From NCBI GenBank assembly GCA_947625025.1, contig CANQMQ010000007.1, forward strand, positions 14,117-78,116: a stretch of 64,000 nt of DNA. The letters run 5' to 3'. Below the pieces are notes generated by a model. That model was not told the DNA's origin. It did not search any database and worked only from the letters and a program-made list of their open reading frames with translations. Below, piece after piece: positions 18,029-52,169 of this stretch. Every line of letters begins with the position of its first letter. The stretch's first letter is position 1. Position numbers and translations under genes: made by a program. This DNA comes from an uncultured Clostridia bacterium (GTDB lineage Bacteria > Bacillota > Clostridia > Christensenellales > Borkfalkiaceae).

Positions 18029-18484
18029 ATGTCTTTATACAGTGAAAAGGTGATGGACCACTTCAAACATCCCCGCAACGTGGGCATCATTGAGGATGCG
18101 GACGGCATCGGGGAAGTCGGCAACGCCAAGTGCGGAGACATCATGAAGATGTATATCAAGGTGCAGGACGGCATCTTGGTAGACGTAAAATTTGAGACCT
18201 TCGGGTGCGGCAGTGCAATTGCTTCCTCCTCGATGGCGACCGAGATGATCAAGGGGAAACCGTTGGAAGAGGCCCTCACCCTCACCAACCGTGCGGTAAC
18301 GGAGGCCCTCGGGGGGCTTCCCGCCTACAAACTCCACTGCTCCGTGCTTGCCGAGCAGGCGGTGCAGGCGGCCATTCTCGATTACTACACCAAGAACAAC
18401 ATCCCCTACGACCCCTCCAAATTTAAGGATGCCCTCTGTGCCCATGAACATGAGCACGAGCACGACGAGGGAGAAGAGGAATGA
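18029..18484 (+). CDS. nifU: Fe-S cluster scaffold NifU/IscU
   Basis: HPRNVG, GNAKCGDIMK, FGCGSAIASSS and HCSVLAEQA are the three-Cys IscU signature. His/Glu-rich tail. Confidence 0.9.
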   Translation: MSLYSEKVMDHFKHPRNVGIIEDADGIGEVGNAKCGDIMKMYIKVQDGILVDVKFETFGCGSAIASSSMATEMIKGKPLEEALTLTNRAVTEALGGLPAYKLHCSVLAEQAVQAAILDYYTKNNIPYDPSKFKDALCAHEHEHEHDEGEEE

Positions 18485-35678: not shown

Positions 35679-38068
35679 TTACACGGCAGGCTCCGTGGGT
35701 GCAGGCTCTTGAGGTGTGGTCTCCGCAGGCGTCCCCAAGGAATAGGTCTGAGGGTCATATCCATTATCCAATACGATGTTGCCGTCGGAGACACTCAACG
35801 TATAACGGGAGCCGTTGATATAGACGATATAGGAATCCGTTCCGGTTGCGGCAACATATACGTCTTTCTCTGCTAATACGGGTTCAAAGGTCTCAGGATC
35901 AAAATCCGATGCCATTGCCTTGATACCGTCCGCAGAGACGACAATGCTATTGAATGTACCACCTTCCGCAGTATAGGTACCGTTTGTAAGGCCCGTAGGC
36001 GTGGAGAGTTTCGTCAATGTTTTCGTAAATACATAAATCGTAACGGGCTCGGCATCCGTTTCCGCATCACCGGCATCGGGCGATTCGGGACCAACTTCTG
36101 CCGCAGGATCGAATCCGCCACCTTCATCCGTATTGAAGAATTTACCGACATTGATCTCAATTTTCAGTTTATCGGGGATTAGCTGATAGGGGGGGTCATC
36201 GTTATACACAGAGCTAATGCTGAATCTATCGATTATCGATTTTTCACCCTTCGTAATTACTACCGTGACACTAACACCGCCTTCGCACGTTACGCCAATG
36301 AGGCGCAGTGTGTATCCTTCGCTGTTGTTCCAAGTGATAGTGCCATTTTCGGCAACGGCAAATGTAGCATTCTTCTCGCCCGTCCAAGTGCCAACCAAAT
36401 CGGCGGGAATTTCGCCAACTTCACTTGCCGTGTAGCGAAGGTCGCCCGAATCGTCTGCGGCAGTCAAAACGAAGTAGCTCTTATCGCCCCACATAAAGTC
36501 AAAGCTGTACAACTTCGAGTTGTGGAAAATCCAATACCTTTCGCCGTCGGAGTATGCCGCAACGTCTGTACTGTTGAGCGTCATTTTTCCGTCCTTGCTC
36601 AATACGAGCGTCTCTTGATTATCTAATCCGCTATAGGTGCCTTCCGCATAATAGAAATCATCAGTAATGACATCGCCATTGCCCTTGACAAAGACGTAGG
36701 TCGTTTTACCCTCTCCGGTTGCCACGACAAGTTGGAATGCGTTCGCCTCGGCGTTATACGTAATGCTTTCGGCTCCATCTATATCGAAGTTGATTTCATA
36801 AGACGTGGACTGCTCTTTTGCGTTTACGAGCGGATAGTTCTGATTTTTCCATGTCACCTTATCGGCGGCAACCGTAAACGTTTCGGAAGAATCTGCAATG
36901 TTCTTCCATTCGCCGATGAATCCCCATTCGGTGGGAATGCTTGTAAGCGCATAATCGACGTAGATGTAAGTATCGTGCCGAATCGTAAACGTATAGCTAT
37001 TCTGTTCATCAAGGGATACGATTTCACCTTCAACTTGGACGGACACAACAACATAGCCGCTGTTCGCCGTAACCGTGATGGTGACTTCCTCTCCCGATTC
37101 GTAGGCATCCTTTTCGGGACTAATCGTCACGGTGCCCATCGTGTCGTCCTCAGGAAGCTCAACCGTATAGGTGATGGGGCCTGCATTCTCAGGACGGAAG
37201 TAATATTGTTCGATGTAGAACGACTTAATAAGGCTTATATCATCTTCGGTAATCGTAATTTCCCAATCGTCAGCGCCGTTTACTCTTACACCATAGTGTT
37301 CCTCACCGCCATCCCATTTTTCGATCTTTTCAATTTCATTCTCTCCCCAAAACACACCAATAGGGCAAACGACAATTGAAGGAACGTCGGGATCGGGCTG
37401 ATCATCGCTATAACAGATATACGTTCCATAATATGCTTCATCAAGGATGAGCGCGTTCGTGCTCGCGGCCTGATATTTGAACGTAGCGGCAATGGTCGTG
37501 TTGGCGGTGACGGTCAGGCTATACGTATTGTCAGCCGTCAGCGTCTTTTCGGCGCCGTCTACCTTGAAACTATCCAAAACCTTGAGCACGTCGGGGGTAA
37601 CCGTTACGGTGACTACCGTATCCTTATTATACGTATATACGTTCCCGTTCTTGGTCCCTTCGGGAGACAAGGAGACCTCACCCCCCCCGTGGTGGAAACC
37701 GTAACCGTGAAGGTAGCGGGAGTGGGCGCGGGCGTATTCGCGGTGAACGTTGCCTTGAGGGTGGTGTTGCCCTGCACCTTGAAGGTATACTTGCCCTCGG
37801 TGAGCTGTGCGGCCGTATCGTTCACGGTGAAGGTGTTGAGGGTGTAACCCGTCTTTGCGGTGACGGTGGCGGTGACTTCCTCATCCTTCACATAGCCCTC
37901 TTTGGCCTTCGGGGCCGTCACTGTGATCTCGCCCTGTGCGGCTTCGCAGACCGTATCTATCTTGTAATAATCGGTCTCAAGCAGGGTGCATGCGGCGATG
38001 CCGAGCGCCGCTACCACGATAAGGAGCGCGGATAAGACCGTAACAAGAATTTTCCTGTACTTACTCAT
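35679..38068 (-). pseudogene. lipoprotein gene split by a frameshift in a G8 tract (pieces 38068..37613 and 37670..35679)
   Basis: The 5' piece has a GGAGG RBS, lipobox LGIAAC and one B-repeat module. The 3' piece continues the same architecture in a frame offset by 2. One extra G gives a 796-codon ORF. Confidence 0.8.
37681..37688. repeat. homopolymer C8 (+ strand) / G8 (coding strand)
   Basis: Read directly and confirmed by the track translation TTGGVRS (ACC ACG GGG GGG GTG AGG). Confidence 0.9.
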
Positions 38069-38130: not shown

Positions 38131-38160
38131 ATTCTATCATAGTGATTCGCATTTTGGCAA
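38131..38160 (-). promoter_or_regulatory. extended -10 promoter of the frameshifted lipoprotein gene
   Basis: Minus strand reads TTGCCA-18 nt-(TGA)TAGAAT. Confidence 0.5.
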
Positions 38161-40044: not shown

Positions 40045-41046
40045 TTACTTATTCATCCCTTCCTGCACGGCTACAGCAACGGCAACGGTAGCGCCGACCA
40101 TGGGGTTGTTGCCCATGCCGATGAGCCCCATCATCTCGACGTGTGCGGGCACGGAGGAGGAACCCGCGAACTGTGCATCGGAGTGCATTCTGCCCATCGT
40201 ATCCGTCATACCGTAGGAAGAAGGGCCTGCCGCCATGTTGTCGGGGTGCAGCGTTCTGCCCGTGCCGCCGCCCGATGCCACGGAGAAGTACTTCACGCCG
40301 TTCTCGTTGCACCACTTCTTGTAGGTGCCGGCAACGGGATGCTGGAAGCGGGTGGGGTTGGTGGAGTTGCCCGTGATGGAGACGCCCACCTTCTCGAGCT
40401 TCATGATGGCAACGCCTTCGGGAACGTTGTCCGCACCGTAGCAGTTGACCTTGGCACGGGGGCCATCCGAATAGGAGATGCGCTTAGTGACTTCCACCGT
40501 CTCGGTGTAGGGATCGAACACCGTCTCGCAATAGGTGAAGCCGTTGATACGGGAAATGATCATCGCCGCATCCTTGCCGAGGCCGTTGAGAATGACGCGG
40601 AGCGGGTTCTTGCGGACCTTGTTGGCATTCATGGCGATGGAGATGGCGCCCTCTGCCGCCGCAAAGCTCTCATGCCCTGCGAGGAAGCAGAAGCATTCGG
40701 TCTCTTCGGAGAGGAGCATCATGCCGAGGTTGCCGTGACCGCGGCCGACCTGCCTGTTTTCCGCAACCGAGCCGGGGATACAGAATGCCTGAAGCCCGAT
40801 GCCGATCGCTTCCGCGGCGTCTGCCGCACGGGTGCAACCCTTCTTGATGGCGATCGCCGCACCTACCGTATACGCCCAGACTGCGTTTTCAAAGCAAATG
40901 GGCTGGGTGCCGCGCACAAGTTTATCGCAGTCTACGCCCTTTGCAAGCGTGATCTCTCTGCATTCCTCTACGGAGGAAATGCCGTATTCCTTCAAGACTG
41001 CGTTGATCTTTTGGATCCTTCTTTCATATCCTTCAAACAGAGCCAT
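40045..41046 (-). CDS. GGGtGRT-family protein (function unknown)
   Basis: 333 aa containing the family signature ...VASGGGTGRTLHPDNMAAGPSSYGMTDTMGRMH.... Confidence 0.75.
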   Translation of the reverse strand: MALFEGYERRIQKINAVLKEYGISSVEECREITLAKGVDCDKLVRGTQPICFENAVWAYTVGAAIAIKKGCTRAADAAEAIGIGLQAFCIPGSVAENRQVGRGHGNLGMMLLSEETECFCFLAGHESFAAAEGAISIAMNANKVRKNPLRVILNGLGKDAAMIISRINGFTYCETVFDPYTETVEVTKRISYSDGPRAKVNCYGADNVPEGVAIMKLEKVGVSITGNSTNPTRFQHPVAGTYKKWCNENGVKYFSVASGGGTGRTLHPDNMAAGPSSYGMTDTMGRMHSDAQFAGSSSVPAHVEMMGLIGMGNNPMVGATVAVAVAVQEGMNK

Positions 41047-41057
41047 ATCGTACCTCC

Positions 41058-41759
41058 TTATTCCTTACGGGGGTCGATGTACTTCACCGCACCCTGTTCT
41101 TCCGAGAATCTGCCGTAGTGGCCGAGCGCCTTCTCCCATGCCTCGTTGGGGGTGAGCCCCTTCTTGACGAAATCGGTCATTTTGCCGAGGGAGACGAATT
41201 CGTAACCAATTACCTGGCTATCCTTATCGAGGGCGAGGCGGGTGACATACCCCTCCGCCATCTCGAGATAGCGCACGCCTTTGGCGGCGGTGCCGTACAT
41301 GGTGCCCACCTGCGAGCGGAGCCCCTTGCCGAGGTCCTCAAGGCCTGCACCTACCACGAGCCCGTCGTCCGAGAAGGCGGATTGCGTTCTTCCGTATACG
41401 ATCTGAAGGAAGAGTTCGCGCATCGCGGTGTTGATCGCATCGCAGACGAGGTCGGTGTTGAGCGCTTCGAGAATGGTCTTGTGGGGAAGAATTTCCGCCG
41501 CCATCGCCGCAGAATGGGTCATGCCCGAGCAGCCGATGGTCTCAACGAGCGCTTCCTGAATGACGCCGCCCTTGACGTTGAGGGTGAGCTTGCAGGCGCC
41601 CTGTTGGGGAGCGCACCAGCCCACGCCGTGGGTAAAGCCGCTGATGTCCGTGATCTGCTTTGCGCACACCCATTTCCCCTCTTCGGGAATGGGGGCGGGG
41701 TCGTGTCTCGGACCCTTCGCAACGCAAATCATCTCTTCCACTTCGCGTGAATATTGCAT
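41058..41759 (-). CDS. NifU/IscU-like scaffold-domain protein with extra C-terminal domain
   Basis: 233 aa. GWCAPQQGACKLTL, TIGCSGMTHSAAMAAE and LVCDAI resemble the three-Cys IscU layout. 11-nt gap to the GGGtGRT gene. Confidence 0.65.
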   Translation of the reverse strand: MQYSREVEEMICVAKGPRHDPAPIPEEGKWVCAKQITDISGFTHGVGWCAPQQGACKLTLNVKGGVIQEALVETIGCSGMTHSAAMAAEILPHKTILEALNTDLVCDAINTAMRELFLQIVYGRTQSAFSDDGLVVGAGLEDLGKGLRSQVGTMYGTAAKGVRYLEMAEGYVTRLALDKDSQVIGYEFVSLGKMTDFVKKGLTPNEAWEKALGHYGRFSEEQGAVKYIDPRKE

Positions 41760-42067: not shown

Positions 42068-42997
42068 TTACTCTGCAGTGTTGCCGCTTGCGGGAGGCGT
42101 ACCCTTCTTGAATTCGAACATATCCGCATCCCCCGCACCGGTAAGGGCAAGGATGCCGTATTCCGTCTTTACAAAAACGTACTGCACCGCTCCTTCCGCC
42201 ATGGCGACCGCATAGGCGCCCGTATAGAGGAGGGTGAATTCGCCCGTCATGCCGCCGCTGAGCGTCGCGGCCTTGCCGCTGATGTGGAGCGTATCGGTCG
42301 TCGTTCCTTCTTCCTGCATCCAATAGTCGCCGTCGATGTTGACATTTTCGGGCAGGGGCTGATACGTCATGGGATATCGATCTCCGCCTGCCTGTGACGG
42401 GGTGACGAACGTGAGCGTCTTATCCGTTTCGCTCCATATGAGTTTGACGCCGTTGAAATCATAGGTACCGGGTGTATTCGCGTCTTCCACTGCAACAGCA
42501 CAATCTCCCATTTGCAGAGGTTTCGCGGAGGGATTCGTTTCACCCGGCTTCATGGTTCCCACCATTGTTACCAAAATACCCGTATCGCCCGTATCCTCGG
42601 TGATGGTGAGCTCATACGTAACTGTGCCGGGTTGGTTTGCGCTGCCGATTTCTACGTCACACGTCCATACACCGTAGAGCTGAGGCTGAACTTCCCACTG
42701 CGCCTTCAACGTGACGTTCTTCGCGGGCATTTTGAAAGTGGCGCCTGCGGCGATGTCGGTTGTGCCGTCGTTCCACTTCGTGAAGGCATACCCTGTGCGG
42801 GTGAAGGTGGTGGCGGGCTTTACGGTGACCGTTGCCCCCTCCTCGTAACTTTCGACTGCGGGAGCGGTCCCCGTGCCGCCGTTGGCTTCGTAGGTGACCG
42901 TGTACTTGACGGGTTCCTCGTCGCCGCCGCATGCCGCGAGGGCGCAGAGCGAGACTGCCATGAGCGCCGCCAATACGGCGCTGATGAATTTCTTCAT
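42068..42997 (-). CDS. 309-aa lipoprotein with InlB B-repeat module
   Basis: Lipobox CALAAC. YTVTYEANGGTGTAP...GYAFTKWNDG...VTLKAQWE. GGAGG RBS at MKKFISA (42997). Confidence 0.8.
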   Translation of the reverse strand: MKKFISAVLAALMAVSLCALAACGGDEEPVKYTVTYEANGGTGTAPAVESYEEGATVTVKPATTFTRTGYAFTKWNDGTTDIAAGATFKMPAKNVTLKAQWEVQPQLYGVWTCDVEIGSANQPGTVTYELTITEDTGDTGILVTMVGTMKPGETNPSAKPLQMGDCAVAVEDANTPGTYDFNGVKLIWSETDKTLTFVTPSQAGGDRYPMTYQPLPENVNIDGDYWMQEEGTTTDTLHISGKAATLSGGMTGEFTLLYTGAYAVAMAEGAVQYVFVKTEYGILALTGAGDADMFEFKKGTPPASGNTAE

Positions 42998-43040
42998 ACT
43001 ATCCTCCAAACTGTGATTTTGGCCTTTAGGCCTGACTTCT

Positions 43041-43067
43041 ATTATATCACCCCCCCCCGTTTGTCAA
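43041..43067 (-). promoter_or_regulatory. promoter whose spacer consists mostly of a G9 tract
   Basis: Minus strand reads TTGACA-AAC-G9-TGA-TATAAT, a 15-nt spacer with an extended -10 TGn. C9 at 43050..43058 is confirmed by the track translation (ITPPR = atc acc ccc ccc cgt). Confidence 0.55.
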
Positions 43068-43125
43068 GCACTTTAACCATGTTTTTGGAAATTTTCGGAA
43101 AATTTTTTTGGAATAAAAAAATCGC

Positions 43126-50861: not shown

Positions 50862-52169
50862 TTACCCCCCCCCGTGCGGGTTCGGGTTTTCCACATCGCT
50901 CTGCTTGGTGCGGGAGAGGGCGAGGCGGTAGATCTCTTCGGTGGCGTAGGAGATCTTGGTGAGCTGATCGCGTAGCCCTACGGGGTGCAGCCAATAGCTA
51001 TCCTCCACCGTAGAGATATCGATGCAGTCCCCGAATACGTTCTCCCTGTACTTCTTCTTGCGGAAGGGGTAATCGTATTCGATGTGTACGCTCTCGAGCT
51101 CGGTCCCCGCCCAAGTGAGGGTTACGGGTTTTCCGTATGCCGTGCAGGTGAGGGTGGTCCCCTCGATGCTCTGGGTGAGCCTGCCCCTGCCCTGATCGCA
51201 GAACTTCTTTGCATTGGGGAGGGTGTGCACGGTGACTTCGCAGTCCAAGAAATACTGCCCGCTCTCCACTTCCCTTCTTACATTCTCCCGTTCCCACTTC
51301 GCCCAATCGGGGATATAGCGGAACTCGGTCTCCCCGTCCTCTGCGGAGAGTTCGGAGAGCTCGCTCATCGTCCATACCTTTCCGCATGCGGCGCACCGGA
51401 GTTTTGTGCCCTCCGAGTGCATCTCGAACTCCTTCTTGCAGTGCGGGCACTGATAGAGGAGGCTGTGCAGCCCGTCCGCGCGGTGCGGGCTTCTAAGGCG
51501 GATGCCGTATTCCCGCTGATAGGCGTAATCATCCCGCTGCAACTTGCTCTGGATACGGGCATCGAGCTCTGCCGTGGAGAGCGTCTGCGTCTCCTCCGCG
51601 GTGGCGATACATTCAAGCTCCGCCCTTAAGGGGATGTTCTGCTCGGGCTTATTCCACTGCGGGGCGGCGATGAAGGTGCCGTACATCCGAAGCGCCACGA
51701 CGGGCACTTTGAGGAGCCTGCACATCTTGGCAACCGCTTCGGGAATATAGGACGTGGTGCCATCCAAGGAGTAGCGGGCTTCGGGATACATACACACGAT
51801 GCTCCCGTATCGATCGACGCAGTGCTTCATGTTGCGGACGAGGCGCAAGTCCTTCACAAACTTTCTCGTGCAGATACAGCCGAGGCTGCGCATGAGGCCG
51901 TCCCCCACGTCCCTGACGGCATCGATCGCAACGACGTTGTTGGCATTGTGCGGGGAGACCGCGACGTACATGAGCGGGAAATCCAACATGCTCGCATGGG
52001 TCGCAAGCAAAAAATAGGGCGGTTTGATGCCGTCCATTCCCATCTTTACCACCGTGGTTTTCTTGCCGCGGAGGCGGGGGTAGATCGCAAGGAGCCGCGC
52101 AAGCATCATCAGAAAGGGGTTTGCCCTGCGCGGTTTGCGTGAAAAATCGTAGTGCCGTATTTCTTTCAT
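50862..52169 (-). CDS. lysophospholipid (PlsC-family) acyltransferase with C-terminal zinc-ribbon-containing domain
   Basis: HxxxxD box THASMLD, then YPEARYS. CPHCKKEF...LRCAACG ribbon. The gene ends ...PHGGG on a G9 tract. Confidence 0.7.
   Translation of the reverse strand: MKEIRHYDFSRKPRRANPFLMMLARLLAIYPRLRGKKTTVVKMGMDGIKPPYFLLATHASMLDFPLMYVAVSPHNANNVVAIDAVRDVGDGLMRSLGCICTRKFVKDLRLVRNMKHCVDRYGSIVCMYPEARYSLDGTTSYIPEAVAKMCRLLKVPVVALRMYGTFIAAPQWNKPEQNIPLRAELECIATAEETQTLSTAELDARIQSKLQRDDYAYQREYGIRLRSPHRADGLHSLLYQCPHCKKEFEMHSEGTKLRCAACGKVWTMSELSELSAEDGETEFRYIPDWAKWERENVRREVESGQYFLDCEVTVHTLPNAKKFCDQGRGRLTQSIEGTTLTCTAYGKPVTLTWAGTELESVHIEYDYPFRKKKYRENVFGDCIDISTVEDSYWLHPVGLRDQLTKISYATEEIYRLALSRTKQSDVENPNPHGGG

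Follow-up and report, generated by a model that had tools for sequence, protein, structure and literature searches.

A poly-G tract and a candidate phase-variable surface lipoprotein in an uncultured gut Clostridia bacterium

When two open reading frames (ORFs) of an uncultured bacterium meet at a run of eight identical bases, is the gene dead, wrongly assembled, or switched off? This question is raised by a gene on the minus strand of a 64,000-nucleotide stretch of DNA (the window; contig CANQMQ010000007.1 of GenBank assembly GCA_947625025.1, from an uncultured Clostridia bacterium). The gene, referred to below as the target gene, encodes a predicted lipoprotein with InlB-type B-repeat modules and is split into two frames by a poly-G tract. 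An earlier reading made from the letters of the window without database searches (the sequence-only reading) proposed that a ninth G would restore the gene and that the tract might switch it by slipped-strand mispairing. The analysis described here favors that proposal. With a probability of roughly 60%, the target gene appears to be a slipped-strand phase-variable surface lipoprotein gene whose copy in the window is in the OFF state, not a dead gene.

On the plus strand, positions 37681-37688 read CCCCCCCC (C8) and are flanked by A and G, corresponding to G8 in the messenger RNA (mRNA) of the minus-strand gene. The context in the mRNA (37693-37676) is ACC ACG GGG GGG GTG AGG, as given in the sequence-only reading. 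The coding capacity of each tract length was determined by in silico replacement. G9 yields a single ORF of 796 amino acids (aa) (..TTGGGEVSLSPEG..) that ends at 35679 and carries the junction peptide ..FTVTVSTTGGGEVSLSPEGTK; G6 and G12 also yield uninterrupted products, of 795 and 797 aa. With G8, translation stops at 37613 after 151 aa with the out-of-frame tail ..GGVRSPCLPK, and with G7 or G10 it stops directly after the tract, giving 129 and 130 aa. The frame behind the tract is open throughout its 663 codons, with no second inactivating lesion, and so long an open frame at this place cannot be accidental. The two ORFs are very probably one gene. The sequence-only reading had likewise given 796 codons for G9 and 151 aa for G8, had taken the ORFs for one gene in two frames and had placed the tract toward the 5' end of a gene for a lipoprotein, and all of this held.

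The evidence that carries the argument is a difference in tract length between near-identical assemblies. A public collection of 5.8 billion proteins was searched with the restored 796-aa protein and returned only one near-identical cluster, whose three members are the 663-aa piece, the 151-aa piece and the 796-aa protein. The last of these (P0013) is letter for letter the in silico G9 product. Products expected from G5, G7, G10, G11 or G13 are not recorded in the collection. At the DNA level, a 3,436-bp SPAdes contig from European Nucleotide Archive sample ERZ27249483 (k-mer coverage 3.19) differs from the window by a single base, a ninth G in the tract, and a 4,101-bp SPAdes contig from sample ERZ27248994 (k-mer coverage 2.77) is 100% identical to the window, G8 included. 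The window itself belongs to a 79-kb contig of a metagenome-assembled genome (MAG), which is probably well covered. The comparison of related assemblies that the sequence-only reading had suggested thus gave G9 with an intact gene in one otherwise identical contig and G8 in the window and a third assembly, a result that supports slipped-strand ON/OFF switching. More contigs of the same organism were reached through the neighboring genes. Altogether, contigs from four other samples offer 22,152 bp for comparison with the window, in which there are 4 singleton substitutions and one indel, the target tract. The strains are at least 99.98% alike. Contigs of sample ERZ27249265 flank the target gene and stop short of the tract.

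Several points weigh against a switch. One of the three assemblies that span the tract is discordant, and both comparison contigs stand at a k-mer coverage of about 3x (2.8x and 3.2x). The 4 singleton substitutions in the contigs from other samples may be consensus errors, and the comparison was made on consensus contigs, not read by read. If the window MAG and ERZ27248994 share reads (e.g., through co-assembly), G8 would be cut to one independent observation. Two G9 tracts elsewhere in the window, one in a promoter (43050-43058) and one at the 3' end of a gene (50865-50873), are invariant in the few assemblies at hand. C8/G8 runs are not in excess in this 57% GC window, which has 5 overlapping matches where dinucleotide shuffles predict 7.2. 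No close relative that would show whether the tract is conserved was found in the protein collection, the GTDB representative genomes or the Joint Genome Institute (JGI) metagenomes, the last being searched by protein and by a DNA pattern with a variable gap.

Could the difference then be an artefact? In that case the tract would have one fixed length, most likely G9 with the gene intact, and low-coverage short-read assemblies would have miscalled it. Indel errors arise most often at homopolymers, and the discordance comes from a single contig. The sequence-only reading had itself allowed for a sequencing error, and at this coverage that caveat stands. G8, however, is found in two assemblies, one of them the 79-kb MAG contig, and if G9 were the truth, the same error would therefore have been needed twice. 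Among runs of at least 7 bases, 13 homopolymer-by-assembly comparisons were possible and the target tract is the sole discordance: the G9 at 50865-50873 has the same length in three assemblies, the G9 at 43050-43058 in two, and several 7-base runs agree everywhere. The first of these G9 tracts was used as a stability control; a change in its length would alter only a C-terminal tail. No other run of at least 7 bases breaks a gene in the window. Furthermore, a MAG from an independent study, described below, has the same kind of 5' split in a surface-protein gene. An assembly artefact is on these grounds unlikely, although among the rival explanations it is the strongest.

The tract is also unexpected from the codon choice of the gene. 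GGG makes up 5 of the 62 glycine codons, two of them in the tract, as compared to 31% in the other window genes. When synonymous codons were shuffled, a G/C run of at least 9 appeared in 0.4% of trials for the whole gene and in 5% when the first 200 codons only were shuffled. In the window genes as a set, G/C runs of at least 6 number 28 against 40.8 expected and runs of at least 7 number 5 against 13.6, while runs of at least 9 number 2 against 0.39, an excess if anything. The tract lies at the start of the second B-repeat module, where homologs have one or two glycines and no tract. The protein therefore does not require the GGG tripeptide, and in-frame changes to GG or GGGG should be tolerated.

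Codon choice bears as well on the explanation that the polymorphism is real and does not switch, i.e., that the strain of the window recently suffered a frameshift which is in effect permanent (an early pseudogene) and which the G9 strain never acquired, with no regulated or selected switching. The gene is accessory and lineage-specific, as might be expected of a dispensable one, and among strains so alike decay would not show yet. The GC content of third codon positions (GC3) points in the same direction: it is ~0.75, typical of the genome, in codons 1-200 (37470-38068) and falls to ~0.5 in codons 200-796 (35679-37470), as against 0.73-0.83 for most genes in the window and 0.61 for the lowest (range 0.61-0.83). 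This suggests a C-terminal part that is mosaic or was recently acquired, and possibly dispensable. The sequence-only reading had noted that a plain pseudogene should show further disabling mutations; none is present in the gene, and the 663 codons behind the tract are clean. Neither the improbability of the tract under codon shuffling nor the occurrence of similar tracts elsewhere in the clade, at surface-protein genes and at promoters, is accounted for by a pseudogene, and a permanent state would be hard to hold at such a site. The mutation rate of a G8/G9 tract exceeds that of ordinary sites by orders of magnitude. The instability of simple sequence repeats (SSRs) is well documented (Orsi 2010, PMC2831843; Lin and Kussell 2012, PMC3315296). 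A real but non-switching difference, be it a young pseudogene or a plain strain polymorphism, is accordingly a rather improbable explanation of the split. The tract was also considered as a recombination seam and rejected, because GC3 drops at about codon 200 and the tract begins at codon 127.

A different proposition is that the G8 allele is read whole by recoding, either by programmed -1 frameshifting on G GGG GGG or by RNA polymerase slippage that adds a G, so that 151 and 796 aa would both be made from one DNA. Formally the site fits, the downstream frame being -1 and G GGG GGG conforming to X XXY YYZ. Long homopolymers can cause transcriptional slippage, mainly A/T runs of at least 9. All-G heptamers are not known to act as efficient slippery sites, however, and a downstream stimulatory structure is missing: the predicted fold of 37700-37560 has z = 0.02 against shuffles. 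The site is not conserved, since homologs are single-frame with one or two glycines, and an in-frame G9 allele exists, which a programmed site would not tolerate. A programmed -1 frameshift site was rejected for these reasons, and recoding in either form is highly improbable. A search of Rfam at the locus gave no match.

The phase-variable lipoprotein gene thus remains the favored reading. As far as can be judged from sequence, the locus combines the marks of a contingency locus: i) a homopolymer tract; ii) a frame switch; iii) a length difference between genomes; and iv) a lesion that the tract alone can repair. The class of gene also fits, because the product is a lipoprotein that carries adhesin-type repeats, the gene belongs to a block of lineage-specific lipoprotein genes set between conserved ones, and its homologs show no more than 36% identity. 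The proposed mechanism would work as follows. The poly-G at codons 127-129 would be a hotspot of slipped-strand mispairing at which replication adds or drops a G. With G9 (or G6 or G12) the ribosome would read through to the full lipoprotein, the ON state; with G8 it would make the 151-aa stub, and with G7 or G10 it would stop right after the tract, all OFF states. The window would then represent an OFF allele and the population of another sample the ON allele. The benefit would be the stochastic display of a fast-evolving surface protein, a form of bet-hedging against phage, host antibody or a change of niche. This reading presumes a biological origin for the G8/G9 difference and not a read error, switching that is both frequent and reversible, a protein exposed at the surface, and a selective benefit.

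The OFF state need not be silent downstream of the tract. The tract and the following TGAGG form a Shine-Dalgarno-like GGTGAGG (within 37670-37688) five bases before a TTG at 37670, and gene callers start the 663-aa ORF at this TTG because of it. The same signal could drive some synthesis of the 663-aa product when the gene is OFF. That product has no signal peptide and would therefore stay in the cytoplasm, not at the surface.

The restored protein is a predicted surface-exposed lipoprotein. Its N-terminus MSKYRKILVTVLSALLIVVAALGIAAC has a positive n-region, a hydrophobic core and a lipobox of the form [LVI][ASTVI][GAS]C, an assignment made by pattern match alone; A26 and C27 of the lipobox are invariant in the alignment of homologs. 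The ribosome-binding site (RBS; GGAGG) and the lipobox LGIAAC that the sequence-only reading had recognized at ATG 38068 are present. Its count of B-repeat modules was correct in part: one module precedes the tract as claimed, and two follow it by Pfam, not three, which makes three Flg_new_2 stretches in the whole protein. The family match (PF18998 Flg_new_2, a divergent InlB B-repeat) scores 62.6 bits (E = 3.4e-17), above the gathering threshold of 23.6. AlphaFold2, run on the 663-aa part with an alignment of 18 sequences, gave an all-beta model with a mean predicted local distance difference test score (pLDDT) of 79.5, in which Ig-like B-repeat modules and about five small eight-stranded beta-barrels form a string. 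The model suggests that the 663 codons have kept the capacity to specify a protein that folds. The target has no sequence match in the PDB, and structure searches gave no significant match, the whole-chain Foldseek alignment being meaningless (template-modeling score 0.09). A single barrel domain weakly resembles calycins/lipocalins, with E values of at least 0.13, a lead and not a result.

Beyond its own near-identical cluster the protein has only distant homologs, all at 36% identity or less. An exhaustive HMMER search found 452 relatives, six of them with E < 1e-30 (34-36% identity), and most matched the B-repeat module alone. The Obg GTPase of the organism is at most 87% identical to that of MAGs from rabbit, sheep and mouse gut, and Candidatus Gallimonas, Borkfalkia and "Christensenellaceae" MAGs are more distant by the same protein. 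In 80 related loci the flanking genes, namely obg and those for a GGGtGRT protein and a 233-aa protein, show synteny and high conservation, and a counterpart of the target gene was found in one locus only, at 27% identity.

The coordinates of the gene parts and of the other features discussed are collected in the table below. The target gene looks like a transcription unit of its own, because the upstream thioredoxin-lipoprotein gene ends in terminator-like hairpins and a promoter-like site of the target follows them, ending ~63 nucleotides (nt) before the start codon; its function as a promoter is predicted from 10 of 12 matches to the consensus. The hairpin after the stop codon, which was read by eye and not called by the consensus scan, is possibly a terminator with a weak T tail.

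Features of the target gene and of other poly-G/C runs. Positions are those of the window unless a related locus (L number) is named.
Feature	Coordinates	Strand	Details
Homopolymer G8 (C8 on the plus strand)	37681-37688	-	codons 127-129 of 796; ERZ27249483 carries G9
Start codon ATG	38068-38066	-	GGAGG 5 nt upstream
Predicted lipoprotein signal peptide MSKYRKILVTVLSALLIVVAALGIAAC	37988-38068, ATG included	-	lipobox IAAC (LGIAAC), Cys27
G8 (putative OFF-state) product	37613-38068	-	151 aa: signal peptide, one B-repeat module, 22 out-of-frame residues; recorded as P0012
Downstream frame	35679-37670	-	663 codons, -1 relative to upstream ORF; recorded as P0001
Whole gene	35679-38068	-	796 codons if the tract is G9
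Promoter-like site	38131-38160	-	TTGCCA, 18-nt spacer, TAGAAT with TG extended -10
Terminator-like hairpins of upstream thioredoxin-lipoprotein gene	38331-38308 and 38278-38256		two hairpins
Hairpin after stop codon	35609-35639	-	agacacgg..ccgtgtct, then ttgcgg
Block of B-repeat lipoprotein genes	28925-43009		members: 1651 aa, 521 aa, target, 504-aa Cys-rich thioredoxin-like lipoprotein, 309 aa
GGGtGRT protein gene (PF14057)	40045-41046	-	
233-aa protein gene	41058-41759	-	no Pfam match
Flg_new/Flg_new_2 lipoprotein gene	42068-42997		ATG at 42997
Promoter tract G9	43050-43058, within 43040-43069	-	TTGACA-aacGGGGGGGGGtga-TATAAT, perfect -35 and extended -10 (TGaTATAAT)
3'-terminal G9	50865-50873	-	last three codons (GGG GGG GGG TAA) of acyltransferase/zinc-ribbon gene 50862-52169
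Palindrome runs	L007 12196; L022 11881; L023 8795; L024 6643; L039 4762/4779; L050 2524/2608		intergenic

Together with its neighbors, the target gene makes up a block of lipoprotein genes that bear Listeria-Bacteroides/InlB B-repeat modules and are interleaved with conserved genes. In the 80 related loci the lipoprotein genes of the block are absent or unrecognizable, and the conserved genes are syntenic. Two of the latter, for the GGGtGRT protein and the 233-aa protein, adjoin each other and are unusually conserved: they keep 94-97% aa identity across species in which Obg is only 75-87% identical.

A second poly-G tract of the block, the promoter tract of the table, lies in the spacer between the -35 and -10 elements, 43 nt upstream of the ATG of the Flg_new/Flg_new_2 lipoprotein gene. 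The spacer of this promoter, most of which is the G9, is only 15 nt long; a poly-G in this place is a classic layout for phase variation at a promoter. The one other assembly that reaches the tract, the contig L085, has the same G9 and ends right after it. Low-coverage contigs from other samples thus break beside the promoter tract (end of L085, 43041), and also in the 5' end of the target gene (end of L086, 37936); these breaks could be chance at ~3x coverage or could reflect local heterogeneity. Look-ups for further assemblies with the lipoprotein behind the promoter tract and with the 233-aa neighbor came back empty.

Tracts of the same kind stand at the same place in related species. One species has TTGACA-tacggcatG10-TATAAT, with a spacer of 18, before a B-repeat lipoprotein gene (locus L006, 12131-12160), and another has TTGACA-atG9ttactgtga-TAAAAT before the gene for a signal-peptide protein (locus L030, 11776-11807). 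Both lie downstream of obg-yhbY, as the promoter tract of the window does; the flanks differ and the poly-G is kept. An intragenic case was found in the independent-study MAG already mentioned, the mouse-gut Christensenellaceae MAG MGBC162943 (locus L029, 18209-21260). There, a gene with an RBS and the signal peptide MLKTRWKSFIWTAATVLLAAGMVLGAVSISNALNASAEG.. meets a G9 tract (18349-18357) soon after that peptide and comes to a stop. A BspA-type leucine-rich repeat (LRR) protein of the LRR_5 family is encoded in the next frame, which stays open over at least 984 codons, and G8 would fuse the two. A search for an ON variant of this split gene was swamped by LRR repeats.

Long G/C runs are otherwise avoided in this clade. 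In 1.28 Mb of related loci, runs of at least 8 are 4.5-fold depleted (19 against 86.5 expected from base composition), and their lengths (seven of 8, ten of 9, two of 10) do not follow the geometric decay expected of chance runs. Most of the others are intergenic palindromes, made of a C-run, a loop and a G-run, or of the type ..ccttcccctcac G8 aagcc.., which look like repetitive extragenic palindromes or terminator hairpins and not like switches. A scan of 81 loci for homopolymers at which plus or minus 1 rescues an ORF was too noisy in GC-rich DNA to be used.

Taken together, these tracts lead to a broader proposal, which we advance tentatively and at somewhat less than even odds. Intragenic tracts (in the target and in the mouse-gut BspA-LRR gene) and promoter-spacer tracts (beside obg-yhbY, in two to three species or more) may form a clade-wide poly-G "phasome" that switches a fast-turnover surface repertoire in uncultured gut Christensenellales-like Clostridia. 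Of the points raised here it most deserves to be pursued, and existing reads would allow a direct test.

Homopolymer phase variation is textbook knowledge for mucosal pathogens, and in commensal gut Clostridia invertons are the known mode of phase variation. The homopolymer type is hardly documented in the uncultured Clostridia that abound in animal guts, and literature searches found SSR phase variation reported neither for Christensenellales nor for related gut Clostridia. If the phasome is real, no SSR-based system of phase variation would have been described before it in commensal gut Clostridia. A biological difference between G8 and G9 would mean that: i) commensals diversify their surface stochastically, which bears on escape from phage and immunoglobulin A; ii) MAG annotation pipelines make a systematic error with genes of this kind, labeling them pseudogenes or two separate ORFs; and iii) the profiling of tract lengths in metagenomic reads could follow ON/OFF states in situ.

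The mechanism itself would not be new; the lineage is where such switching is undescribed. In the meningococcal porA and opc genes, poly-G/C lies in the promoter spacer and the length of the spacer tunes promoter strength; the G9 between the -35 and -10 elements of the neighboring lipoprotein gene resembles this arrangement. Neisseria meningitidis nalP/mspA is phase-variable through homopolymers in the coding sequence (PMC3723659), a coding-tract ON/OFF switching of surface proteins like that proposed for the target. The N. meningitidis proteins differ in being Gram-negative outer-membrane proteins of a pathogen whose switching is experimentally verified. The poly-G/C contingency loci of Campylobacter jejuni (PMC8437040, PMC13317227) offer another likeness: intragenic G8-G11 tracts, several per genome, switch surface-structure genes by slipped-strand mispairing. 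C. jejuni, however, is a low-GC epsilonproteobacterium without mismatch repair, its switched genes mostly encode glycan-modifying enzymes and the dynamics are documented read by read, whereas the present case is a structural lipoprotein of a 57% GC uncultured Clostridia bacterium, seen in consensus sequences.

Another parallel is Bordetella pertussis, in which homopolymeric tracts have been surveyed (Gogol et al. 2007, PMC1891110). There, too, the genome is GC-rich, poly-G/C occurs in coding regions and in surface-protein promoters, and the tracts were found as length differences between near-clonal genomes; the organism is a proteobacterial pathogen and the gene families are others. Theory holds that repeats near N-termini favor phase variation (Lin and Kussell 2012, PMC3315296). 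Among Firmicutes there is the 5' poly(A) tract of Listeria monocytogenes inlA, at which a frameshift leads to truncation and frequent reversion was measured (Orsi, Bowen and Wiedmann 2010, PMC2831843). The inlA tract is poly(A) and truncates after 8 aa, whereas the tract described here is poly(G) and leaves 151 aa. InlA is LPXTG-anchored with LRRs and its reversion is experimental; the target is a predicted lipoprotein known from sequence alone. Both cases concern a surface-protein gene of a Firmicute whose product is truncated by a frameshift at a homopolymer in its 5' part, and it was in the internalin family that the B-repeat fold was first described.

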